Positions 2,583-62,643 of a stretch of DNA of 64,000 nt are shown here, piece by piece (position 1 is the stretch's first letter; every line of letters begins with the position of its first letter). Source of the stretch: an uncultured bacterium (lineage in GTDB: Bacteria > Patescibacteriota > Minisyncoccia > Phycocordibacterales > Phycocordibacteraceae); NCBI GenBank assembly GCA_937879955.1, contig CALFMK010000001.1, forward strand, positions 506,356 to 570,355, in the 5' to 3' direction. The notes under the pieces are model-generated. The model had not been told where the DNA came from, did no database searches, and saw only the letters and a program-made list of their open reading frames with translations. A program made the translations under genes and the position numbers.

Positions 2583-3277
2583 GCCTCGAATCCCCGCACG
2601 AGTACGCAGAGATCGAGGTTGGGCATGAGTCCGTCTTCGACGACGTCGACGCGATAGCCGCCGACGCGGACAAGAGGGCTGAGGTTATGGAAGCGGGAGA
2701 GGGACGCGTCGCACAGACCCTCGAAGGGATACGGCCGCAGACTCCCGAGGACGAGCGTCTCCTTGCCGAACTCAGCGAGCGCCTCGCGGAACTCCCGGCC
2801 TCACGGGAGGATCTGAAGAACGTCACGCAGTCCGCCGCGCTCGATACGCTTCTGAGCGTTATCGCGTCCCCTGCGGAAGCGGATGACGGCACGCGCGAGG
2901 AGAAGGTGGCGCGCGTCCTTGCGGACAACCCGAGCCTCCTCGAGACCCTGGTACGAGGCCTCGCGAGCGTGACCCAGATGAACGTGCCGCAGCTCGACAA
3001 GCATCCTATCGACCACTCGGAACACGAGCGCCTCGCGTCCGAGACGAAGGCCATACTCGACGAGCTCGAGGCTGCGGACAAGAAGCTGTTCAAGGGCGTC
3101 GCGCTGCGCACCGCAGAGCGCGTCGCGCGCGCGATCCTGAGCGCGAGCACGCTCGGCATCGGCGGGCTCGTCTATGACTCCGCGAAGGACGCGTACCTGA
3201 ACATGCAGAAGCGCAAGGAGATACGGGCGCGCCGGAAGAAGCTGCTCGAATCCGCGAGCGCGTACGCGATGGCGTAA
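2579..3277 (+). CDS. hypothetical acidic alpha-helical protein
   Basis: 232 aa ORF ending just before a strong hairpin terminator; no family recognised. Confidence 0.5.
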   Translation: MSLESPHEYAEIEVGHESVFDDVDAIAADADKRAEVMEAGEGRVAQTLEGIRPQTPEDERLLAELSERLAELPASREDLKNVTQSAALDTLLSVIASPAEADDGTREEKVARVLADNPSLLETLVRGLASVTQMNVPQLDKHPIDHSEHERLASETKAILDELEAADKKLFKGVALRTAERVARAILSASTLGIGGLVYDSAKDAYLNMQKRKEIRARRKKLLESASAYAMA

Positions 3278-13136: not shown

Positions 13137-13664
13137 ATGAAAGGCACGCGAGCGTTCACCCTCATCGAGCTCCTCGTCGTCATCGCGATCATCGGCATCC
13201 TCTCGAGCGTCGTGCTCGCATCGCTGAACACGGCTCGCATGAAGGCGCGCAATACGCAGCGCCTCGCTGCGGTGACGGAGCTGCGGAAGGCCGCACAGCT
13301 CGGATTCAACGATCTTGGATCGTATCCGTTGGTGACGACGTGGAAATGCGTCACGCAGTCCTGCTACGGCACCTGGAACTATCCGGCGGACGCGTCGGTG
13401 GATGCATTCTTCTCGCCTTATATGGGGAAGCCCGAGGATCCTGCGTCCGGCAGGTCCGGAATCGGCGGCATCCTGTACTCGAACTGGCCGGGCGGCACGT
13501 CGTCCGCGGGGCCGAATGCGGGCGTCTATTTCCCGTCAGGCTTCTACTTTACGTACATGCTCGAGCTCTCAGGCTCCACCGTCACTGACGCCATGTGCGG
13601 GCCCGGGAAGGTCTGGACCTTTGCAGCTAATACCTACTTCCAGTGCCTGCTAAGGCTCGAGTAA
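13137..13664 (+). CDS. type IV pilin / pseudopilin-like protein
   Basis: prepilin leader plus FTLIELLVVIAIIGILSSVVLASL N-methylation/TM segment. Confidence 0.75.
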   Translation: MKGTRAFTLIELLVVIAIIGILSSVVLASLNTARMKARNTQRLAAVTELRKAAQLGFNDLGSYPLVTTWKCVTQSCYGTWNYPADASVDAFFSPYMGKPEDPASGRSGIGGILYSNWPGGTSSAGPNAGVYFPSGFYFTYMLELSGSTVTDAMCGPGKVWTFAANTYFQCLLRLE

Positions 13665-13686
13665 TCTCGTGCCGTATACTTCGAAC

Positions 13687-14229
13687 ATGGAATCATCGCC
13701 TTCGCCTCGCGGCTTCACCCTCATCGAGCTCCTCGTCGTGATCGCGATCATCGGCATCCTCTCGAGCGTCGTGCTCGCGTCGCTCAGTACTGCGCGCACG
13801 AAGGGTCAGATCGCGGCGGCGAAGGCCGACATGAGCACGTTCGTGAAGGCGGTTACAATCGCGCAGGGCGAGGGCAGCAAGCGTCTCAGTACCATGTCTG
13901 CCGAGGGCGGCTCTGGCACGTCGAACTGCAGTCAGTGCGCGTGTACGGCGGCGACCGACCTTAGGAATATCTCATCCACGAGCCAGTGCTACATCAATTG
14001 GATCGGCGTCCTGACAGGCGTGCAGGCGAATACCGGTGGCCTCGTGACGAACCTCACGTCCATGACACGCGATCCCTGGGGAAGCCCGTATCTCGTGGAT
14101 GAGAATCAGGGAGAGGCGGGGAACTGTTCCTCATTCGACTCGCTTCGGTCTGCGGGTCCGGACGGCATCAAGAGCACCAGTGACGATGTCGTCGGTCCTC
14201 AGATACCACTCTCGCCGACGTGCCCGTAG
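13687..14229 (+). CDS. type IV pilin / pseudopilin-like protein
   Basis: GFTLIELLVVIAIIGILSSVVLASL prepilin N-terminus; 4 Cys in C-terminal region; alternative start 13669. Confidence 0.7.
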   Translation: MESSPSPRGFTLIELLVVIAIIGILSSVVLASLSTARTKGQIAAAKADMSTFVKAVTIAQGEGSKRLSTMSAEGGSGTSNCSQCACTAATDLRNISSTSQCYINWIGVLTGVQANTGGLVTNLTSMTRDPWGSPYLVDENQGEAGNCSSFDSLRSAGPDGIKSTSDDVVGPQIPLSPTCP

Positions 14230-14237
14230 ATAATCAG

Positions 14238-14309
14238 TGCTCTCAGTAGGAATCGAACCTACATCTCAGGCTTCGGAGGCCTACGCTCTATCCATTGAGC
14301 TATGAGAGC
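14238..14309 (-). tRNA. tRNA-Arg (anticodon CCG)
   Basis: GCTCTCA/TGAGAGC acceptor, anticodon stem TAGGC/GCCTG, loop CTCCGAA. Confidence 0.85.
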
Positions 14310-14983
14310 GTGCGGCCAATTTCACGGCCGAGCGCTATGAGTTCTCGCTGAATAGCACTCGAAGCATAGTGCACATTGCAGATGCCCGCAAAGTTTTCGC
14401 GGTAATTCTTTCCCGTGCCACGAGGTTTTACGTACGGCTTCCAGAATTGCGATTTCGGAACCCCTAACTTCTTAGACCAGAAAGTAAGCACCTTGGCTTG
14501 GATATGAGTCTCGTGTATCTGGAGCGCGATGCGTATACGCGACTCATCTATGCTGTATGCGCGCCTGAGTAAGGTGAGGAAAAGAAGGGCGAGATCGGCA
14601 TCGGTGTTGGTGAACTTCAAATTTCCCTCCTGCTTTCCTCCTTCTGCCCAGTAGAGCATCGCGAGTAGGGCTTTATCAAGATTCATGTCACGCAGATTCA
14701 GCGCGTCCGCTACTTTCTTTGCGCTGATTTCGGCGTTAGCGATCCGTTCGAGGCGCTTTCTTCGTATCGTTACGACTGCGAGCTTCCGGGCACTTCTCAA
14801 GTGACGCAGCTGACGTTCTGGATCTCGAGGTATCGCTTCGCGCGTAGCCCATAGCGAAAGGGTGCTCTTCGGAACTCCAAGGCGGGTGCATATTTCTGAA
14901 TAGGGAACCTTCTTCCTTAGCAGTGCCATTGCTTCCGACTTCACTTCGTCAGACCATCTGTTCATATTATAGATTATATACAA
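14300..14983 (-). CDS. HTH-domain protein with LAGLIDADG-like motif (putative homing-endonuclease-like, lower-GC gene)
   Basis: 227 aa; N-terminal HTH (EICTRLGVPKSTLSLW); LAMLYWAEGG resembles LAGLIDADG; about 50% GC versus about 65% flanks; stop overlaps 5' end of tRNA-Arg. Confidence 0.4.
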   Translation of the reverse strand: MYIIYNMNRWSDEVKSEAMALLRKKVPYSEICTRLGVPKSTLSLWATREAIPRDPERQLRHLRSARKLAVVTIRRKRLERIANAEISAKKVADALNLRDMNLDKALLAMLYWAEGGKQEGNLKFTNTDADLALLFLTLLRRAYSIDESRIRIALQIHETHIQAKVLTFWSKKLGVPKSQFWKPYVKPRGTGKNYRENFAGICNVHYASSAIQRELIALGREIGRTLS

Positions 14984-15026
14984 TATAAGAGTATCTATCT
15001 ATAATTGCTTTTCTGGTCATCACTAA

Positions 15027-15056
15027 AGCAAAAGCGCCCGCACGGGCGCTTTTGCT
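15027..15056. terminator. terminator hairpin
   Basis: GCAAAAGCGCCCGCACGGGCGCTTTTGC. Confidence 0.7.
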
Positions 15057-15062
15057 TATGTG

Positions 15063-15134
15063 TGCTCTCGGATGGAATCGAACCATCATTTTAACTTCCG
15101 CAAAGTTATGTCCTATCCATTGAACGACGAGAGC
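15063..15134 (-). tRNA. tRNA-Arg (anticodon GCG, unusual)
   Basis: GCTCTCG/CGAGAGC acceptor, anticodon stem TAACT/AGTTA, loop TTGCGGA (G37 consistent with CGN-reading tRNA). Confidence 0.7.
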
Positions 15135-15195
15135 AGGTCCGTTCCTCGGGAATGAGGGCTGGGTAGAACGACTCTACCGCACCAGGGCCCGTAAA

Positions 15196-15669
15196 TCAAA
15201 GGCGCAGCAGGTCGATGATGCGGTCGACGGCCGATTCGTCATGCTTTCCTTCCTCGATGTGGTCGGCGAAGAACTCGTACACCTCGAGCGGATCGGGGCC
15301 GACGATAGGGATGAGGAGATGCGGCGCGAACACCTTGCGAGTCCGGAGCGAGAGGGCAGGAGGCATCTTCGGGTCGAGGTACTCGAGCACCGAGAACGAG
15401 ATGATGCTGTCGTACTCGTAGAGGTTGTCGTCGATCATCACGCCGTCCTCCGTTATCCGGAACTGATGGAGACGCGGGCGCTTCAGGGTAGAGAGCGCGA
15501 GCGTGCCGCTCGCCGCGAGGATGAGGAGCGCGAGGATGACGTTGCCGAAGAGCGCGCTCGCGATCGCGGACGCGAGCGCCACGATGCCGAGCGACCAGTA
15601 CCAGTCAGCGCTCTTCTCCTCGAAGAGGTATCCGACCGCTTCCCATTCGAAGAAGACCGCGCGTGCCAT
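15196..15669 (-). CDS. hypothetical membrane protein
   Basis: two TM helices after MARAVFFEWE start; ORF extends to 15705. Confidence 0.5.
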   Translation of the reverse strand: MARAVFFEWEAVGYLFEEKSADWYWSLGIVALASAIASALFGNVILALLILAASGTLALSTLKRPRLHQFRITEDGVMIDDNLYEYDSIISFSVLEYLDPKMPPALSLRTRKVFAPHLLIPIVGPDPLEVYEFFADHIEEGKHDESAVDRIIDLLRL

Positions 15670-15732
15670 AGATAGGGGAATGATAGCACTCGTACGCGCG
15701 TCCATGGACGCGAAGTCACACGTTCTCCTGTG

Positions 15733-15817
15733 CGGACGGGGTGGGATTCGAACCCACGAGACCTCTCGGCCTGGCTGTTTTCAAGACAGCTCGTTTCGAC
15801 CACTCACGCACCCGTCC
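15733..15817 (-). tRNA. tRNA-Ser (anticodon TGA)
   Basis: type II tRNA with long variable arm, anticodon loop CTTGAAA, acceptor GGACGGG/CCCGTCC. Confidence 0.85.
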
Positions 15818-15830
15818 GTATCTATGAGTT

Positions 15831-16112
15831 TTACGCGTCCGTCGCGCTTGGCGCAACCGCAGGTGCCGGCGCGACGTAGGACTGCTTGTCCTTCCGGAAG
15901 GCGAAGAGATACACGAGCTCGAGTATGCCGAGCGTATTGAGGACGAGCACCGCCACGAACCAGTACGGCTGCCTGTTCCTCGCGGCGTACCAGAGCGCGA
16001 ACGCCTTGATGACGGTGGTCCAGATCGTGAGGAAGATGAATACGGTCAGGAGCGCGACGTGCGGTATGGCAGATATGAAAGGAAGGCTCTCGATGCTCGG
16101 GTACGGGATCAT
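15831..16112 (-). CDS. small membrane protein (93 aa)
   Basis: internal start MIPYPSIESLPF; two TM helices; upstream part of ORF would overlap ruvX. Confidence 0.45.
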   Translation of the reverse strand: MIPYPSIESLPFISAIPHVALLTVFIFLTIWTTVIKAFALWYAARNRQPYWFVAVLVLNTLGILELVYLFAFRKDKQSYVAPAPAVAPSATDA

Positions 16113-16160: not shown

Positions 16161-16559
16161 ATGCGCTACATGGGCATCGATTTCGGCACGAAGAAGGTGG
16201 GCATCGCGTTTTCTGACGAGGCCGGCCAGATGGGATTCCCGTACGGGATCATCCCGAACGACGGACGGCTCATCGACGAGATCCTTGCGCTCATCGAGCG
16301 CAAGGAGGTAGGCGCCGTTGTGATCGGGGAATCTCGCGATTATGCGGGCAACGAGAACGCGGTGGCCAAGCACGCGAAGGAGTTCGCGATGCTGCTCGAG
16401 AGACGCTCGGGCCTGCGCGCCGCGTTCGAGCCGGAGATGCTCACCACCCAGGAGGCCCGACGCGACTTCGAGGGTGTGCGCGTTGCCGGGAGTCCGAACG
16501 TCGACGCGTCGGCCGCCGCCCTCATCCTTACCAGCTACCTATCCCGTACCCATGCCTGA
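16161..16559 (+). CDS. ruvX: Holliday junction resolvase-like protein RuvX/YqgF
   Basis: MGIDFGTKKVGIAFSD RNase-H-like motif, C-terminal DASAAALILTSYL as in YqgF. Confidence 0.8.
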   Translation: MRYMGIDFGTKKVGIAFSDEAGQMGFPYGIIPNDGRLIDEILALIERKEVGAVVIGESRDYAGNENAVAKHAKEFAMLLERRSGLRAAFEPEMLTTQEARRDFEGVRVAGSPNVDASAAALILTSYLSRTHA

Positions 16560-16941
16560 AGAGATTATTGAAGAGAAGCCTGAGGAGGTCGTCGAAGAGT
16601 CATCGACGCCGCGCATCTCCATAGACGAGTTCGCGAAGATCAAGGTGCAGGTGGGCACCGTCCTGTCCGCCGCGCTCGTACCCGAGACCGAGAAGCTGCT
16701 CCGCCTTTCGGTCGACTTCGGCGAGCCGAAAGGTCCGCGCCAGATCGTGTCGGGCATCCGCGCGTACGTGGAGGAGCCTGAGGACCTCGTCGGGCGCCAG
16801 CTCGCGTTCGTGACGAACCTCGCGCCGCGGAAGATCAAGGGGTTCGAGTCCGACGGCATGCTGTTCGCGGTGGGGGAGGCGGATGCGTTCGCGTTCCTCA
16901 CGCCTGACCGTCCGATCCCTCCTGGTACGTCCGCGCACTAG
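16552..16941 (+). CDS. tRNA-binding domain protein (Myf/CsaA-like, MetRS C-terminal-type domain)
   Basis: 129 aa; FAKIKVQVGTVLSAALVPETEKLLRLSVDFGE OB-fold tRNA-binding signature; start overlaps ruvX stop. Confidence 0.7.
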   Translation: MPEEIIEEKPEEVVEESSTPRISIDEFAKIKVQVGTVLSAALVPETEKLLRLSVDFGEPKGPRQIVSGIRAYVEEPEDLVGRQLAFVTNLAPRKIKGFESDGMLFAVGEADAFAFLTPDRPIPPGTSAH

Positions 16942-16988: not shown

Positions 16989-17060
16989 GCCCCTATAGCT
17001 TAATGGATAAAGCTGCGGACTTCTAAGCCGTCGATCTTGGTTCGATTCCAGGTGGGGGCA
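16989..17060 (+). tRNA. tRNA-Arg (anticodon TCT)
   Basis: acceptor GCCCCTA/TGGGGGC, T-loop TTCGATT, loop CTTCTAA; anticodon stem has one mismatch so lower confidence. Confidence 0.65.
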
Positions 17061-17080
17061 CATTGTAGCGGCTCCGGTAT

Positions 17081-20865: not shown

Positions 20866-21549
20866 ATGGGACTGCGCGGGCCGAAGCCTAAGAGGCAGGA
20901 GATTAAATGGACCGAGGATTTCGCCTACGCGGTCGGGCTACTCGCGACCGACGGCTGCCTCTCTTCTGACGGGAGACATCTCTCGCTTGTATCGAAGGAT
21001 CGCGAGCAGGTAGAGGCAATCAAGAGGTGTCTCGGCTTAGGGGCGGGCATACGTCGTCATGATGCCGGAGTCGCTGGTAAGGACCGGGCATACTTTCGCA
21101 TCCAGTGGGGAGACGTGATTCTGTACGACTTCCTAAGGTCCATAGGGATCAGGGAGCGGAAATCTCTCACCATCGGCGCACTCCAGATACCGGACGAATA
21201 CTTCTTCGATTTCCTGCGAGGCTCGTTCGACGGGGATGGAAGCTTCTACAGCTATCGCGATCCTCGATGGAGCACGAGCTTCATGATCTATACGAGCTTC
21301 GCATCAGCCAGCCATGCCCATGTATGTTGGCTCCGCGAGACCGTACGACGCCTCGCTGGAATCGTCGGACACGTGTCTGTCAGCAAGAGGGGGAATGGCA
21401 TGTACAGCCTCCGGTACGCCAAGCGGGAATCGTTGCAGCTGCTCGCCCGGCTGTACTCTAAGGCCGGCTCGGCCTGCCTTGCGAGGAAAAGATTGAAAAT
21501 AGAGCGCAGTTTGCGTATAGTAGGCGAGTTGCTGCCGGCTGGCAGCTAG
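20866..21549 (+). CDS. double-motif LAGLIDADG homing endonuclease (free-standing)
   Basis: two LAGLIDADG motifs: FAYAVGLLATDGCLSSDG and FFDFLRGSFDGDGSFYSY; 227 aa; GC slightly below flanks; abuts tRNA-Leu. Confidence 0.8.
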   Translation: MGLRGPKPKRQEIKWTEDFAYAVGLLATDGCLSSDGRHLSLVSKDREQVEAIKRCLGLGAGIRRHDAGVAGKDRAYFRIQWGDVILYDFLRSIGIRERKSLTIGALQIPDEYFFDFLRGSFDGDGSFYSYRDPRWSTSFMIYTSFASASHAHVCWLRETVRRLAGIVGHVSVSKRGNGMYSLRYAKRESLQLLARLYSKAGSACLARKRLKIERSLRIVGELLPAGS

Positions 21550-21554
21550 AACGA

Positions 21555-21636
21555 GCCCGGGTGTCGAAATTGGTAGACGAGCATCCTTGAGGTGGATGTG
21601 CCGAAAGGCGTGGAGGTTCAAGTCCTCTCTCGGGCA
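21555..21636 (+). tRNA. tRNA-Leu (anticodon GAG)
   Basis: type II tRNA, anticodon stem CATCC/GGATG loop TTGAGGT, T-arm GGAGGTTCAAGTCCTCT. Confidence 0.8.
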
Positions 21637-21747
21637 CACTGTAAGGTAATCGAAGCAAAAGGGACTTCTTGTGGAGTCCCTTTTGCCGTCCAGGATAGAG
21701 ACAGGGACTCACCATTTCCCGGTTCTCGTGCTATAACCCTTCTACAT

Positions 21748-56079: not shown

Positions 56080-57207
56080 ATGCTGATCGGCAAAAACATA
56101 AAGCAAAAAGAGGGTTTCTCTGCGTTCGTTCCTGAGCCTTTCCCGCCCGTGGGACTGGGTGATTTTTCGCATGAGCTCCTCATTAAGGCGGCAGAAGCGG
56201 ACCGTCTGGTGGGGAAGCTCGATGGTGTAACGCACACGCTTCCGGATCTCGACTTCTTCCTCAAGATGTTCGTGACGAAGGACGCTACGTCGTCAGCGCA
56301 GATCGAAGGGACGAAGGCGACGATCATTGATGCTATCGAGATGGATGCTGGTATCGCTACGACGCAGACCGATGCGGATGACATTCTCTACTACGTGAAA
56401 GCGCTTCATTATGGAAGCGAGAGGCTCGCCAATTTCCCGCTATCGCTCAGGCTTATACGGGAGATACACGGACAGCTCATGACAGGAGCGCGCTCCTCGC
56501 ATTTTGCCGACCCAGGCTCCTTTCGGAGGACGCAGAATTGGATTGGAGGAACGTCGCCATCGAACGCGCTCTTCGTGCCGCCTCCGGTTCAGGAGATGAT
56601 GCGGGCGCTCGGCGACCTCGAGGCATTCCTTCACGACGAGATGCAGACGCTCCCAATAATGCATATCGCCCTCACTCACGCGCAGTTCGAAACGATCCAC
56701 CCGTTTCTCGATGGTAACGGGCGTACCGGGCGCTTGCTTATAACCATGATGCTCTGTCATCGTGAACTGCTTGAGCGTCCGGTGCTCTTCCTTTCTTCCT
56801 ATTTCAAGAAGCATCAGAAGACCTACTACACGCGCCTGAACGGATACCACGAAGGGGACGTGGAGCCCTGGGTGGACTTCTTCCTCGATGGCGTAATAGA
56901 GACTGCGAATAATTCGATCGCGATCTCTAAGGAAGTCAGAAAAATCAGAGACGAAGACATGGCGAAGATCCTCAAGCTCGCGAAGCGGGAATCGGAGAGC
57001 GGCGTGCTCGTGCTCTCGAAGCTATTCGGAAATCCTATCGTAACGACCCGTACGATAATGGAGTGGACCAATTTCTCCCGAGCGGGAGCACAAAAGCTCA
57101 TCGAACGCTTCATCGTGCTCGGCATCTTGCAGGCCCGGGAGGAGAAGGGGACCTACGATCGCACGTACGTGTACAAGACCTATCTCGACGTGTTCACGAA
57201 GTCGTAA
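56080..57207 (+). CDS. fic: Fic/Doc family protein (putative AMPylator) with N-terminal inhibitory helix motif and C-terminal wHTH
   Basis: Fic motif HPFLDGNGRTGRLL; N-terminal SSAQIEGT (S/TxxxE(G/N) inhibitory motif); lower GC than flanks; AT-rich promoter region 55991..56079. Confidence 0.9.
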   Translation: MLIGKNIKQKEGFSAFVPEPFPPVGLGDFSHELLIKAAEADRLVGKLDGVTHTLPDLDFFLKMFVTKDATSSAQIEGTKATIIDAIEMDAGIATTQTDADDILYYVKALHYGSERLANFPLSLRLIREIHGQLMTGARSSHFADPGSFRRTQNWIGGTSPSNALFVPPPVQEMMRALGDLEAFLHDEMQTLPIMHIALTHAQFETIHPFLDGNGRTGRLLITMMLCHRELLERPVLFLSSYFKKHQKTYYTRLNGYHEGDVEPWVDFFLDGVIETANNSIAISKEVRKIRDEDMAKILKLAKRESESGVLVLSKLFGNPIVTTRTIMEWTNFSRAGAQKLIERFIVLGILQAREEKGTYDRTYVYKTYLDVFTKS

Positions 57208-58812: not shown

Positions 58813-59594
58813 CCTCTTACGTGTTAAAGACCAAGAAATTAGTAACCAAACGGAGCGGATAAGCGAAAGCCGTAAGGCTCTCGACACCGCCCCGCACGGG
58901 GCTTTTTTCTTGAAAGGGCACGCAGGTCGTTGACAGACGAATATGCAAATAGGTAATCAACGCCGCTAGGCGTGGACGTTCGCGTCCATGGCTGGCGGAT
59001 TGAATATTGCAGAATCACACAATCGTTAGAAAGTGGTGTTCAGGTTTCCGCACAGGAGACATGAAGGGTGCACGGTGGATGCCTAGGCTTGCGACAGCGA
59101 TGAAGGACGCGACTAATCAGCGAAATGCTTCGGGGAGGCGATTTGTAGCCTTTGATCCGGAGGTGTCCGAATGGGGAAACCCAACCAGCAATGGTTACCT
59201 CTCAATATTTTGTAGAGGAGCGAACCCAGGGAAGTGAAACATCTCAGTACCTGGAGGAATAGAAAACAACAACGAGTTGCGTTCCGTCTATTCGATGCTT
59301 CGAGTAGATGGAACGCGACTCTCGTGATTCCCTAAGTAGCGGCGAGCGAAACGGGAATAGCCCAAACCTGATACTTCGGTATCAGGGGTTGTAGGGCGGA
59401 AGCGCCGTACTTGATACGGCACAAGTTACAAAAGTTCTACATAGCAGAAGAAGCTGGAAAGCTTCGCCCCAGAGGGTAATGGCCCCGTATGCGAAATGTA
59501 AAACCCTTGTGAGCTTCCGATCCTGAGTAGTTCGAGACACGAATAGCTCGGATGAATCTGCCGGAACTAACCGGTAAGGCTAAATATGTCGCAG

Positions 59595-59640
<46 letters not shown>

Positions 59641-61079
59641 GAGAGGGGAGTGAAATAGAACTGAAACCGTGTACTTACAAAGGGTTAGGGTGGGCTCCGG
59701 TCCATCCTAGCGTGCCTATTGAAGAATGAGCCTGCGAGTTTATGTATGTCGCTTCGGCTAAGCCCGTTACGGGGCGGAGCCACAGGGAAACCGAGTGTTA
59801 ATAGCGCGTCCGTGTCATACATAAGACCCGAAGCCAGGTGAGCTTGCCATGAGCAGGGTGAAGTCTGTCGAAAGACAGATGGAGGCCCGAACCCGTATGT
59901 CGTACAACGCATTGGGATGACTTGTGGTAAGGAGTGAAAAGCTAATCGAACCTGGTAATAGCTGGTTCTCTCCGAAACATCTTTTGGGATGGCGTCGCGT
60001 GGTCCCCTTGGGGGTAGAGCACTGGAAGGGATGAACAGGGAGAAATCTCGTCATTCCTATCAAACTCCGAATACCAAGGATTATGAGCGCGGCAGTTAGA
60101 CGGTGGGGGCGAAGCTCCACACGTCGAAGGGGGAAGAGCCCTGGATCGCCAGTTAAGGTCCCTAAATCTACGCTAAGTACAACTTAAGGAAGTGAGGATT
60201 CATTGACAATGAGGATGTTGGCTTAGAAGCAGCCACCATTTAAAGAAAGCGTAACAGCTCACTCATCGAGAGTCCTTGCGCCGAAGATGATCGGGGTTAA
60301 GCGTAGTACCGAAACTGCGGGAATGGAGATCCTCCGGGATCTCCATTCGGTAGGAGAGCGTTCCGTTCTGCTGTGAAGCTAAAGGGGTGACCCATAGTGG
60401 AGCGTACGGAAGTGAGAATGCAGGCACAAGTAACCACAATGCGGGTGAGAACCCCGCACGTCGAAAGAACGAGGTTTCCTCAGCTATGACGATCAACTGA
60501 GGGTTAGTCGGGCCTTAGGGGATGGCGAAAGCCGCACCTGATGGACACAGGGTTAATATTCCCTGACCGATCATATGTGCGATGGAGTGACGGATTGCTG
60601 TATCTATGGCCCATTATTGGATTTGGGTTGGTGCCGTGAGGAGGCTTGGTAGGTAAATCCGCCAGGCGCTACTCCGAGCGGAAAAACAATGTTCTCCTTC
60701 GGGGGAGCAGAGCATAGAGAGCGCGGTTCCAAGAAAAACTTCTAAGCTTCAGCATATGACGACCGTACCGGAAACCGACACAGGTGTTCAGGTCGAGTAG
60801 ACTAAGACGAACGAGTGAGAGGTCCTCAAGGAACTCGGCAAAAAAGCGGCCGTAAGTTAGCGATAAGGCCTGCCCCTAGCAATAGGGGCCGCAGCGAAAG
60901 ATTTTCTGCCAACTGTTTACCAAAAACACAGCTCCCTGCGAACTCGTAAGAGGATGTATAGGGGGTGACGCCTGACCAATGCCGGAAGGTCAAGCAGGGA
61001 CGGTACATTGATTTCGATTGATGTGCTAGGCCCTATAAGCCCCGGTGAATGTCGGCGATAACTATAATCGTCCTAAGGT

Positions 61080-61275
61080 CCTGCATCTGAGCGATCGGAT
61101 GCAGGACGGATTGGGGCGGTTATAGGAGACCGTAAACAGTTCTGAGAAGATTACGTCATCAAAAGCTACCTCTTCAGACCGGAAGGTCTGTTGAATCCGC
61201 GACTCACATGAGAGGCCATACGTCGCGCCCCTAGCAATAGGGTGAAGATATGGTCCTACGTTAAAGGAATAGTAG
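61080..61275 (+). mobile_element. putative group I intron (about 196 nt, no ORF) in 23S domain IV
   Basis: interrupts conserved CCUAAGGU|AGCG; 5' exon ends in U, insert ends in G, contains GAAGATATGGTCC resembling group I P7/P9.0 consensus AAGAUAUAGUCC. Confidence 0.5.
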
Positions 61276-61936
61276 AGCGTAATTCCTTGTCTGGTAAGTT
61301 CAGACGTGCACGAATGGCGTAATGAGTGGAAAACTGTCTCGAGGACTTGCTCGGTGAAAATGCAATACCGGTGAAGATGCCGGTTACCTGTAGTTAGACG
61401 AAAAGACCCCAGGAGCTTTACTACAGCTTGGTATTGGGGTTGTGTGTCGTATGCGTAGCATAGGTGGGAGACTTTGAAGCGTACCTCTTGGGGTACGTGG
61501 AGTCGCCAGTGAAATACCACTCTTACGATGTGCAACTTCTAACCCGCGTAAGAACTACGTGGGGACAGTGCCTGGCGGGTAGTTTTGGTGGGGCGCTATC
61601 CTCCTAAAAAGTAACGGAGGAGTCTATTAAGGTTGGCTAGGCGCGAATGGAAACCGTGCCGATAGTGTAATGGCACAAGCCAGCTTAACTGTAAGGGGTA
61701 CATCCCGCACAGATGCGAAAGCAGAGCATAGTGAACCGATGGTCCGCCTTAGATGCGGCCAGAGATTAACGGATAAAAGTTACCCTGGGGATAACAGGCT
61801 AGTTCCGCCCAAGCGTCCATAGCGACGGCGGAGTTCGGCACCTCGATGTCGGCTCACCTTAGCGCGGGGCTGGAGAAGGTCCCAAGCGTATGGCTGTTCG
61901 CCATTTAAAAAGGTACGCGAGCTGGGTTCAAACCGT

Positions 61937-62249
61937 GTGGGGCTCGAATCTTCGGATTCGTTCCTCACACCGTTTGAATCCCTTCGAGATTTCTGTTGTC
62001 AGAATTCGAAAAAGTGCGAAAGAATGAGAGTGAATGTCTTTTCGTCTTGAAACTAAGATAGAACCAACCACGACACGGCGGCGTGTTCCTGAAAGGGGAC
62101 ACGGGAAGCTGACTGGTATCGGTGGAACCCTACTCGAAAGAGGGGCGACACCGAGGGAAGCCGAAAGGCGCCCGTAGAGACTGAACGTCAGACACCCGGA
62201 AGGGTGATATTACAGTCCGATCCTCCGAGTAATCGGAGCAAACGAAATG
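61937..62249 (+). mobile_element. putative group I intron (about 313 nt, no ORF) in 23S domain V at the I-CreI/I-CeuI-type site
   Basis: interrupts conserved AACGU|CGUGAGACAG; ends in G; contains GATATTACAGTCCGATCC resembling AAGAUAUAGUCGGACC of group I introns. Confidence 0.5.
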
Positions 62250-62643
62250 CGTGAGACAGGTTGGTCTCCTATCTACTACAGGCGTTGATTCTTGAGGAGA
62301 CTTGCCCCTAGTACGAGAGGACCGGGGTGAACTGACCTCTGGTCTACGAGCTGTCACGCCAGTGGCATCGCTCGGTAGCTATGTCGGGATGTGATAACTG
62401 CTGAAAGCATATAAGCGGGAAGCACGCTCCAAGATTAGGAATCGTTATGAGGCTCCTAGAAGATGACTAGGTTGATAGGCTTTAGATGGAAGCGCAGTAA
62501 TGCGTTGAGTCGAGAAGTACTAATATGCCCAGACTTCTGTGCGGAACTCTGTATGTCACATCTGATGATGCGTGACTGCAATATTGAATGGAGATCCTAT
62601 TTGCATATTCGTCCGTCTGCGAAGACGGAGAAAACGTGCGTAT

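Follow-up and report, generated by a model that had tools for sequence, protein, structure and literature searches.

The open reading frame (ORF) lodged between two tRNA-Arg genes in the 64,000-nucleotide stretch of DNA analyzed here (hereafter the window) is probably, at about 60% by our own estimate, a free-standing homing-endonuclease-like selfish gene from a family that dwells at tRNA genes. This family is large and has hitherto been neither annotated nor described: it comprises 3,025 clusters at 50% identity, collected at E ≤ 1e-10, and it occurs in Patescibacteria, Omnitrophota, and large viral contigs. The window protein is a putative nuclease.

The ORF and Its Genomic Context

As originally predicted, the ORF lies between tRNA-Arg(GCG) and tRNA-Arg(CCG), with a tRNA-Ser gene nearby, and the ARAGORN and Rfam calls agree on this arrangement (table 1). 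The stop codon was also correctly placed inside the 5′ end of tRNA-Arg(CCG): TAG (14300–14302) constitutes U8-A9-G10 of the tRNA, and the overlap is visible in the sequence. The protein had been given as 227 aa long. This length is obtained from an in-frame TTG at 14983, upstream of the ATG (ORF list, 14300–14983, minus strand). The ATG at 14965 is the likelier start, and the 221-aa translation from it is 100% identical to the database protein P0001.

Table 1. Features of the Locus and of the Encoded Protein
Feature	Position	Strand	Description	Source
CDS	14300..14965	−	HTH and LAGLIDADG-like protein, 221 aa from ATG	ORF list, translation, family alignment
Helix-turn-helix	14846..14947	−	Transposase type, N-terminal, EVKSEAMALLRKKVPYSEICTRLGVPKSTLSLWA	Pfam, translation
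C-terminal domain	14303..14701	−	Alpha/beta, 133 aa, putative catalytic	AF2 model
LAGLIDADG-like motif	14633..14668	−	LLAMLYWAEGGK, helix with terminal invariant Glu-Gly	Translation
ORF/tRNA overlap	14300..14309	−	ORF 3′ end and tRNA 5′ end, 10 nt	Sequence
tRNA-Arg(CCG)	14237..14309	−	Adjoined by the ORF	ARAGORN, Rfam
tRNA-Arg(GCG)	15062..15134	−	Upstream of the ORF	ARAGORN, Rfam
tRNA-Ser(UGA)	15732–15817	−		ARAGORN, Rfam
Putative promoter	14973..15001	−	Sigma-70-like, TAGATA-17-TATAAT, AT-rich spacer	Consensus scan
Terminator-like hairpin	15021..15062		20-nt inverted repeat, 90% complementary, 2-nt loop	Repeat search

The GC content is 0.47–0.56 over 14300–14999 and about 0.61–0.65 in the flanks; the drop is real, although the 50% against 65% initially quoted made it slightly too large. 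Codon usage departs from the surroundings, with a GC3 of 0.57 in the ORF versus 0.77–0.95 in real neighboring genes. The tRNA-Arg(CCG) gene has a GC content of 0.52, compared with 0.56–0.63 for most other tRNA genes of the window, and that of tRNA-Arg(GCG), which is the usual tRNA partner for the protein clade of the window ORF, is 0.45. The observation first made at 14238–15134 is confirmed.

In a consensus scan of positions 14000–16000, the only promoter-like sites were those of the sigma-70-like promoter in table 1, which is predicted to end 7 nt upstream of the ORF ATG. The terminator announced upstream together with tRNA-Arg(GCG) was recovered as an inverted repeat directly 3′ of that tRNA, dividing it from the ORF unit. 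This unit would run from the promoter (about 15001) through the ORF to tRNA-Arg(CCG). As there is no separate promoter-like site for tRNA-Arg(CCG), its co-transcription with the ORF is probable. Cleavage by RNase P at the tRNA 5′ end would strip the stop codon from the ORF message and, by this loss, would keep protein output low. Short direct repeats had been proposed at 14310 and about 15020. They are absent: in a repeat search of 14100–15300, no direct repeats flanking the ORF were found, only 10-nt matches at chance level. Terminal inverted repeats and target-site duplications were likewise missing from this interval, which yielded the terminator hairpin and 10- to 22-nt chance-level matches.

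Domain Organization of the Protein

The N-terminal helix-turn-helix (HTH) proposed for the window protein is recognized by two Pfam profiles above their gathering scores, HTH_23 (27.7 bits, E = 2.2e-6) and HTH_Tnp_1 (26.8 bits, E = 6.3e-6). Compared with the PDB, the family profile matches the PAI subdomain of Sleeping Beauty (2m8e, E = 9e-4). When the protein or the family profile was searched against PDB sequences, nothing beyond the HTH was matched, and matches in PHROGs were limited to HTH-type DNA-binding families. Pfam detected no transposase catalytic domain, DDE or other, in the window protein, but the HTH only.

The C-terminal domain corresponds to no family in Pfam or NCBIfam. In its AF2 model (mf119ab6aae25, pLDDT 91.9), the helix of the motif spans residues 95–109 and ends with E109, followed by G110. 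Among 93 diverse members of the family, Y106, E109, G110, and K112 are invariant (100%) and N121 and D123 are conserved at ≥97%; about 15 residues of the domain are conserved at ≥85%. The segment LLAMLYWAEGGK had been likened to a single LAGLIDADG motif, and it indeed combines a helix, a conserved acid, and then a glycine, a resemblance at the motif level only. The acidic residue occupies the C-terminal end of the helix, a position shared with LAGLIDADG enzymes, and the segment after the motif recalls the strand-helix pattern of LAGLIDADG_3.

Fold searches lean in the same direction. The best superpositions in BFVD are with intein/DOD homing-endonuclease domains (TMq 0.43–0.47, E ≥ 0.14), and a PDB fold search returned I-Tsp061I and I-DmoI at probabilities of 0.87–0.91, OmpA-like domains equaling LAGLIDADG domains in score. 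With Foldseek, neither the full-length nor the C-terminal model matched a PDB entry at E < 1e-3. According to DSSP, the topology is a-b-a-b-a-b-b-a; relative to alpha-beta-beta-alpha-beta-beta-alpha, the canonical first hairpin is missing and one helix is extra. Profile comparisons do not establish the assignment. The LAGLIDADG Pfam profiles PF00961, PF03161, and PF14528 do not match the window protein at E ≤ 10. LAGLIDADG_3 reaches E = 0.1 on the family protein P0046 and E = 0.042 on one of ten diverse C-terminal domains, both under the gathering score. When the C-terminal profile was aligned by hhalign with the bona fide LAGLIDADG_3 family also encoded in the window, the result was not significant (P = 0.039, probability 1.3%) before and after profile diversification, although the motifs align in register. 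PF14527 was matched faintly by a relative of the second family of ORFs only. The LAGLIDADG identity originally suggested is not established: the motif and the leaning of the fold searches favor it, Pfam and profile–profile alignment do not. Homology of the C-terminal domain to LAGLIDADG is plausible, if unproven; the domain could also be a new nuclease fold that only mimics the motif.

A Family Linked to tRNA Genes

We examined 216 loci. All 97 near-full-length family ORFs in them have a tRNA gene at most 160 nt away, and for 85 of them the tRNA 5′ end (the 3′ end in the convergent clade) is located between −90 and +60 nt of the stop codon. About half of the same-strand copies take their stop codon from inside the tRNA, and 15 copies show an identical 10-nt ORF/tRNA overlap. 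The stop inside tRNA-Arg(CCG), which could have passed for a local accident, is a family-wide trait. As a rule, family members adjoin a single tRNA gene, usually tRNA-Arg(GCG), on its 5′ side. The wedge between two tRNA-Arg genes, real in the window, is a clade-specific variant seen in the window and in three relatives (L001–L003). Other arrangements include convergent copies (L012, L015, L018, L019, L041, and L055) and an Arg-CCT clade with the tRNA upstream of the ORF.

Protein subfamilies follow tRNA identity: depending on the clade, the partner is tRNA Arg-GCG, Arg-CCG, Arg-TCT, Arg-CCT, Trp, Tyr, Lys-CTT, Val, Gly, Ala, or Ser. The 16 relatives found on viral contigs are all in or beside tRNA clusters. 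A tblastn search of the INPHARED phages gave no match. Two family copies occur within 12 kb at L061, L062, L066, and L079; copies sharing a genome fragment are diverged paralogues located at different tRNA genes. In some sources, relatives are named "transposase-like."

Patchy Distribution and Decay

An unbiased scan for CPR-type tRNA-Arg(GCG) genes, in which upstream sites were counted if at least 800 nt of upstream sequence was available, revealed the ORF next to the syntenic tRNA at 1 of 88 upstream sites and 0 of 80 downstream sites; as the empty sites come from assorted Patescibacteria, the distribution of lineages could explain part of this low figure. Empty sites keep the mem169–tRNA–rpsT synteny. 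With 87 of the 88 homologous sites sampled lacking it, the gene is accessory with a patchy distribution, and this occupancy rules out a conserved core host gene. A direct view of presence and absence at a homologous site is given by the occupied L012 and its empty counterpart L144, whose flanks are 83% identical; we found no recent pair of this kind with more than 90% identity.

Several copies are decaying: L021 is frameshifted, and L031, L058, and L047 are deleted at their N-terminus with the tRNA still abutted. AT content is higher in the ORF than in its flanks at 80 of 80 loci. The window ORF is also incongruent with its surroundings. L007 is the closest locus to the window by its flanks, with flanking proteins 76–92% identical and a tRNA-Arg(TCT) 99% identical, and its ORF, on the opposite side of tRNA-Arg(GCG), shares 45% identity with the window ORF. 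The original view of a small selfish, endonuclease-like insertion at tRNA genes is supported by the empty sites, the decay, the AT-richness, and the diverged, differently placed ORF of L007; its LAGLIDADG assignment is not established, its direct repeats are absent, and the wedge is a clade-specific variant.

Candidate Cases of tRNA Genes Carried with the ORF

At particular loci, the sequences support the arrival of the ORF with a foreign tRNA copy that displaced the resident one. At L012, a foreign tRNA-Arg(GCG) in inverted orientation accompanies the ORF, and the resident tRNA persists as a 17/18-nt 3′ remnant. Similar 3′ remnants are present at L003, L059, and L060, and the foreign tRNA and the remnant occur together at L012, L059, and L060. 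The remnant junctions of L012, L003, and L060 coincide with the T-arm/T-loop or are close to it; that of L059 lies further 5′.

The window tRNA-Arg(CCG) tracks the ORF clade and not the host: it is 90% identical to that of L001, a relative in the ORF clade, and 73% identical to that of L007, the closest by host. The control tRNA-Arg(TCT) behaves in the opposite way (84% to L001, 99% to L007), and the sequence of the window tRNA-Arg(GCG) goes with host relatives (90% to L006, 86% to L004). On these identities, tRNA-Arg(CCG) probably belongs to the same inherited cassette as the ORF. Across 33 loci of the GCG clade, the correlation between tRNA and ORF similarities is only rho = 0.06, so tRNA co-transfer is supported for particular cases and not as a rule. 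Since two host markers correlate with each other at rho = 0.28 only, the global correlation between ORF, tRNA, and host markers is uninformative, and we claim no general phylogenetic decoupling.

Comparison of tRNA positions 8–13 between occupied and empty sites, as a test for an "immune allele," showed no enrichment, and occupied sites have no distinctive (immune) allele of the 5′ half of the tRNA. A chimeric tRNA at L023, in which the element would have given the 5′ half, was considered and rejected: the acceptor strand of the upstream 5′ fragment mispairs with the 3′ strand of the intact tRNA.

Proposed Mechanism and Alternatives

We propose that the N-terminal HTH would bind the DNA of a tRNA gene and that the protein would act as a dimer. 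The LAGLIDADG-like domain, through Glu109, Asp123, and Lys112, would cut tRNA alleles devoid of the ORF, at a site that the remnant junctions suggest is near the T-arm. Repair off an ORF-bearing donor would then copy the ORF and the adjoining tRNA into the broken site, following the same logic as demonstrated for T4 SegB. Such an element may move with a replacement tRNA, in the manner of a homing endonuclease. A more far-reaching version, which we advance tentatively, is that the family represents an unrecognized drive for tRNA gene replacement, in which a nuclease gene fused to the tRNA 5′ end forms one cassette with it and shares its stop. The cassette would destroy the resident tRNA copy and take its place, bringing a functional copy of its own. 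Loss of the element would then cost the host an essential tRNA or a tRNA promoter. With CPR bacteria and large phages as hosts, the family would have radiated to more than 10 tRNA identities.

A domesticated or never nucleolytic DNA-binding protein is an unlikely alternative. With its HTH and a dimerizing alpha/beta domain, the protein would control the transcription of the neighboring tRNA or simply drive it, the gene being kept where its promoter became that of the tRNA and lost elsewhere. The HTH is the sole domain with significant matches, the downstream tRNA in the window lacks a promoter-like site, the family is highly conserved, as in the C-terminal residues listed above, and WhiA sets a precedent for a LAGLIDADG-like protein with an HTH that acts as a regulator. 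However, occupancy of a single site in 88 indicates that the tRNA can do without the gene. Neither diversification over more than 10 tRNA identities, nor paired copies within 12 kb, nor placement in viral tRNA clusters, nor arrival with foreign tRNAs that oust resident ones is expected of a regulator. In domesticated LAGLIDADG proteins, the acidic residue of the motif is typically lost; here, it is invariant.

A new IS-like transposase targeting tRNA genes, with a transposase-type HTH and a novel small catalytic domain, appears improbable. The HTH_Tnp_1, HTH_23, and Sleeping Beauty matches, the label given to relatives in some sources, and the tRNA fragments beside some copies would suit it. 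Yet the protein has no DDE, serine, or tyrosine recombinase domain, and the NCBIfam models for IS3 and IS481 score 14.9 and 11.8 bits against cut-offs of 160 and 224, respectively. The element consists essentially of the ORF alone, its surroundings lacking both terminal inverted repeats and target-site duplications, and copies on the same fragment have diverged instead of being the near-identical copies of an IS.

We give least credence to an RNA-binding, maturase-like factor acting on the tRNA or on the ORF–tRNA co-transcript in processing, protection, or repair, as an optional accessory carried with tRNA genes. LAGLIDADG proteins may act as RNA maturases, all copies are linked to tRNA genes, those in viral clusters included, and the physical overlap would place ORF and tRNA on one transcript. 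Against this, the protein begins with a classical DNA-binding HTH domain, and displacement of a resident tRNA gene is an event at the DNA level. Moreover, the convergent copies and the Arg-CCT copies with an upstream tRNA are linked to the tRNA without being co-transcribed, and recognition of the gene (DNA) therefore fits better than recognition of the transcript. A role in defense was dropped, as PADLOC gave nothing relevant.

If the homing-endonuclease-like reading is correct, Patescibacteria and large phages harbor a large unannotated family of selfish nucleases specific to tRNA genes. The recurrent AT-rich ORFs annotated as "hypothetical" or "transposase-like" by tRNA genes would be explained, a mechanism would be at hand for horizontal tRNA gene replacement in reduced genomes, and the SegB paradigm would be widened from T-even phages to cellular lineages. 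Subfamilies appear to be specialized by tRNA gene; in that case, they would form a natural series of DNA-recognition modules that are compact (about 220 aa) and differ in specificity. The conserved layout with the stop inside the tRNA provides a testable coupling of tRNA processing to selfish-gene expression.

Comparison with Known Systems

WhiA is a transcription regulator encoded by a conserved core gene, with two degenerate LAGLIDADG domains devoid of the catalytic acids and a C-terminal HTH. The window protein similarly joins a LAGLIDADG-like domain with an HTH, and it differs from WhiA on each of these counts: its domain is single and keeps an invariant Glu, its HTH is N-terminal, and about 1% of the sites sampled carry its gene. 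With the I-CreI-type single-motif LAGLIDADG and DOD-intein domains (I-DmoI, I-Tsp061I, PF14528), it shares the helix LLAMLYWAEG with its invariant acid and Gly, a domain size of about 130 aa, and best superpositions on DOD endonuclease domains. Unlike them, it shows no significant sequence or profile match, the first beta hairpin is missing from its predicted structure, which includes one additional helix, and its gene lies outside introns and inteins and encodes an N-terminal transposase-type HTH.

In CPR bacteria, LAGLIDADG homing endonucleases are encoded in rRNA insertions (PMC11270868), in a study that mentions neither tRNA nor HTH. The host phylum, the general class of selfish nuclease, and the targeting of a stable-RNA gene are common to both families; the rRNA endonucleases reside within intervening sequences, whereas members of the present family border the 5′ edge of the RNA gene from outside. 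The HNH homing endonuclease all8564 is conserved upstream of long tRNA arrays in cyanobacteria and was proposed to promote the spread of horizontally moving tRNA genes (PMC8421152). The parallel lies in an endonuclease gene kept next to tRNA genes that spread horizontally, but the nuclease family is another one, the arrays contain up to 43 tRNAs and not one, and no ORF–tRNA overlap was reported.

The T4 SegB protein is a free-standing GIY-YIG homing endonuclease encoded in the T4 tRNA gene cluster; the site that it recognizes includes the T-psi-C stem-loop motif conserved among tRNA genes, and the enzyme drives its own inheritance together with that of neighboring tRNA genes (PMC2330249). Both SegB and the present proteins are encoded by free-standing ORFs located among tRNA genes and missing in related genomes. 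In the present family, most remnant junctions fall in the T-loop or close to it, at some loci the ORF appears to have been inherited along with its tRNA, and distant members are found in viral tRNA clusters. The HTH and LAGLIDADG-like protein is unrelated to GIY-YIG enzymes, and its hosts are mainly cellular (Patescibacteria and Omnitrophota). Its ORF is joined to the 5′ end of the tRNA, which often supplies the stop codon, and its subfamilies each appear to be specialized on single tRNA identities.

The low-GC ORF and its tRNA setting

ARAGORN, Rfam and the ORF call place the low-GC ORF between two tRNA-Arg genes, as in the original prediction. We took the ATG at 14965 as its start, because the 221-aa product is then identical to a database protein (P0001) and the N-termini of homologues agree. 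The predicted position of the stop codon inside the tRNA-Arg(CCG) 5' end was likewise confirmed: ORF and tRNA share 10 nt, and in the tRNA start GCUCUCA-UAG the stop TAG corresponds to positions U8-A9-G10. The GC content, described as lower than that of the flanks, is 0.47–0.56 across 14300–14999 versus about 0.61–0.65 nearby, and third-position GC is 0.57 versus 0.77–0.95 in real genes of the window. The flanking direct repeats that had been suggested are absent around the ORF. The promoter-like −10 hexamer ends just 7 nt from the ATG, and no Shine-Dalgarno motif could be recognized before it, so that translation may start on a leaderless mRNA.

Coordinates of features in the window
Feature	Position	Strand	Remarks
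Type IV pilin-like gene	13137-13664	+	Tandem with next; N_methyl motif
Type IV pilin-like gene	13669-14229	+	N_methyl motif; 7 nt short of tRNA-Arg(CCG) 3' end
tRNA-Arg(CCG)	14237-14309	-	ARAGORN, Rfam
Low-GC ORF	14300-14983	-	Between both tRNA-Arg genes; 227 aa counted from TTG
Promoter-like site	14973-15001	-	TAGATA-17-TATAAT; ends 7 nt ahead of ATG
20-nt inverted repeat	15021-15062		Directly after tRNA-Arg(GCG)
tRNA-Arg(GCG)	15062-15134	-	ARAGORN, Rfam
tRNA-Ser(UGA)	15732-15817	-	ARAGORN, Rfam
tRNA_bind-domain protein gene	16342-16941	+	PF01588; ends 48 nt before tRNA-Arg(TCT)
tRNA-Arg(TCT)	16989-17061
LAGLIDADG_3 ORF	20866-21549	+	227 aa; two motifs, GLLATDG and GSFDGDGS; Pfam E=4.7e-7
tRNA-Leu(GAG)	21555-21637		Begins past LAGLIDADG_3 ORF, which ends 6 nt before
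Fic/DOC-family ORF	56080-57207	+	Fic_N + Fic; GC 0.547
23S rRNA	59050-62544		3,495-nt match
ORF in 23S rRNA insertion	61062-61535	-	157 aa; GC 0.49; no Pfam match

A large family linked to tRNA genes

A word-indexed search returned 259 relatives, every one of Patescibacteria-type source, and an exhaustive search yielded 5,671 50%-identity clusters at E<=1e-3 (3,025 at E<=1e-10). GTDB contigs, with one genome per species, gave at least 551 loci (individual loci are cited here with the prefix L). tRNA-Arg(GCG) lies directly 3' of the ORF in 56 of the 60 closest loci; L001–L003, like the window, have tRNA-Arg(GCG) just upstream and tRNA-Arg(CCG) downstream. Members at 28–35% identity adjoin tRNA-Arg(TCT), Trp, Tyr, Lys(CTT), Val(GAC), Gly(GCC), Ala, and Ser genes in the same manner, and an Omnitrophota clade is found just downstream of tRNA-Arg(CCT). 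Each of the 16 remote relatives from IMG/VR is placed within or next to a tRNA cluster, on contigs of 11–500 kb, mostly >59 kb.

All 97 near-full-length copies have a tRNA within 160 nt. In 85 of these, one end of a tRNA (with few exceptions the 5' one) is located −90 to +60 nt from the stop, and two read through the entire tRNA. About half of the copies obtain their stop codon from the tRNA (U8-A9-G10 or a D-loop TAA or TAG), and overlap lengths of 10, 15, and 22 nt are seen repeatedly. In a neighbor-joining tree, copies are sorted by tRNA partner and arrangement: the window groups with L001–L003, the sole copies between GCG and CCG tRNA genes, and six convergent copies form one clade. An activity of the ORF product at the RNA level fits poorly with this distribution, as the convergent and upstream-tRNA clades retain the linkage though ORF and tRNA have no common transcript. 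Single 12-kb fragments (L061, L062, L066, L079, L045, and L007) carry two diverged members at different tRNAs, for example, Trp and Tyr, Trp and Arg-CCT, or Arg-TCT and Gly-GCC, which indicates that the family spread within genomes toward new tRNA targets.

Patchy occupancy and replacement of resident tRNA genes

For a sampling independent of the ORF, metagenome contigs were searched with a tRNA-Arg(GCG) pattern of the CPR (Patescibacteria) type, giving 120 loci. The ORF was found against the tRNA at 1 of the 88 sites having at least 800 nt upstream, and on the downstream side at 0 of 80. The ORF-less loci are true empty sites, since in dozens of them the tRNA lies between a gene for a 169-aa membrane protein and rpsT, the same neighbors as in the window. 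Decay is also seen: the L021 copy carries a frameshift, and in L031, L058, and L047 the HTH region is gone. Relative to its flanks, the ORF is richer in AT at every one of 80 loci, yet follows host GC. L007, the locus nearest to the window by its flanks (membrane protein 76%, S20 92%, RuvX 69%, and tRNA-Arg(TCT) 99%), has an ORF upstream of tRNA-Arg(GCG), not between the two Arg genes, and 45–46% identical to that of the window, no nearer than copies of distant genomes. A global correlation of identities was uninformative, as even two host markers correlate weakly with each other (rho 0.28). The low occupancy, the decay, the AT-richness, and the incongruence of L007 support the small selfish insertion originally proposed.

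The best pair of occupied and empty sites, L012 and L144, shows 83% flank identity. In the empty L144, the membrane-protein gene is followed after 35 nt by tRNA-Arg(GCG). In L012, it is followed by the ORF, an intact inverted tRNA-Arg(GCG) clearly unlike the resident type, about 60 nt, and then GATTCCTGGCGGGAGGAC, which matches the 3' end of the resident-type tRNA at 17 of 18 nt and precedes homologous downstream sequence. The ORF of L012 therefore brought its own tRNA, displacing the 5' two-thirds of the resident gene. In L003, L059, and L060, too, the intact tRNA is succeeded by a similar 3' remnant, and the junctions are at or near the T-loop TTCGATTCC motif in three of the four remnant loci. 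L023 harbors two extra tRNA-Arg(GCG) 5' halves (2372–2409 and 3225–3269), each ending in the anticodon loop; they flank the ORF upstream of the intact tRNA, with breakpoints unlike the T-loop junctions elsewhere.

The tRNA-Arg(CCG) of the window is 90% identical to that of L001, a locus of the same ORF clade, versus 73% for L007, whereas the unlinked control tRNA-Arg(TCT) is 84% identical to that of L001 versus 99% for L007. These opposite affinities indicate that the ORF and tRNA-Arg(CCG) were probably inherited as a cassette. Among the copies partnered with tRNA-Arg(GCG), we did not find co-inheritance as a general statistical trend, and no particular allele of the tRNA 5' half set the occupied sites apart. 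If the product were a non-nucleolytic regulator, the 1% occupancy, the radiation across many tRNAs, and the displaced resident tRNA genes would be difficult to explain.

The encoded protein and its possible relation to LAGLIDADG endonucleases

The N-terminus is the sole part with significant matches: HTH_23, HTH_Tnp_1, and Phage_CI_repr each score above gathering, and a profile of the family additionally hits the Sleeping Beauty PAI subdomain. Searches of NCBIfam, PHROGs, PADLOC, and PDB sequences contributed nothing on the C-terminal 130 residues. Confident AlphaFold models (full-length pLDDT 92.3; C-terminal domain, 91.9) predict an HTH of three helices, a helix of 40 residues, and an alpha/beta domain whose first helix is LLAMLYWAE, ending exactly at Glu109-Gly110. 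Among 93 diverse members, Y106, E109, G110, and K112 are invariant and L105, W107, N121, D123, W164, and G195 show conservation of 97% or more.

The HTH of the original prediction is thus confirmed, and the LAGLIDADG resemblance is present at the motif level but not in sequence statistics. Pfam LAGLIDADG_3 was seen in two relatives only (E=0.1 and E=0.04), and hhalign against a bona fide LAGLIDADG_3 family of the same genome gave P=0.039 and a probability of 1.3%, with the motifs aligned in register. The best BFVD superpositions are intein/DOD endonuclease domains (prob 0.92–0.99, TMq 0.43–0.47, rmsd about 4 A, but E>=0.14); in the PDB, I-DmoI and I-Tsp061I reach prob about 0.9, ranked below OmpA-like domains. 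The predicted fold leans toward LAGLIDADG, and such an ancestry of the C-terminal domain is plausible, at about even odds. Sources label relatives "hypothetical" or "transposase-like"; an IS-type transposase would here be without catalytic domain, inverted repeats, or target-site duplications.

Other features of the window

A second, unrelated ORF is a bona fide LAGLIDADG_3 member with >1,262 relatives. The order rplS, ORF, tRNA-Leu(GAG), with gaps of 2–10 nt, recurs at four further loci that were retrieved, representing three distinct proteins. With this second case, the placement of endonuclease-type genes at tRNA 5' ends may be a common trait in these genomes.

Bacterial tRNA-Arg is usually of the ACG (inosine) type, and GCG is unusual; these Patescibacteria (the window and L001–L200) have GCG, and some viral contigs ACG. 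The tandem pilin-like genes look like a separate local insertion, as rpsT is much nearer the tRNAs in related loci. The neighborhood of RuvX and the tRNA_bind protein is kept in many related loci. The Fic/DOC-family ORF is below the window mean GC of 0.616. Compared with the 2,925-nt model, the 23S rRNA match implies an insertion of about 570 nt, probably a CPR-type rRNA insertion, with an ORF on the opposite strand.

Comparison with known systems

Established features of this family are its linkage to tRNA genes, its patchy distribution, the decay of copies, a foreign composition, subfamilies specific to particular tRNAs, and single events of replacement. In both anatomy and distribution, it corresponds to a homing-endonuclease gene of the free-standing type. 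The C-terminal domain would cut the DNA of ORF-less tRNA genes, with the HTH assisting recognition; the ORF promoter would drive a joint transcript of ORF and tRNA, and RNase P processing would remove the ORF stop codon.

Searches of the full-text literature gave no account of the family, nor of CPR endonuclease genes located at the 5' ends of tRNAs; the LAGLIDADG genes treated for CPR bacteria are those within rRNA insertions. What appears to be new is the family itself, together with its architecture, its fusion to the 5' end of the tRNA, and its spread over CPR bacteria and phages; as a kind of element, free-standing homing endonuclease genes located at tRNA genes are already known. An HNH endonuclease by cyanobacterial tRNA arrays has been read in the same way (PMC8421152). 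[quoted passage not shown]
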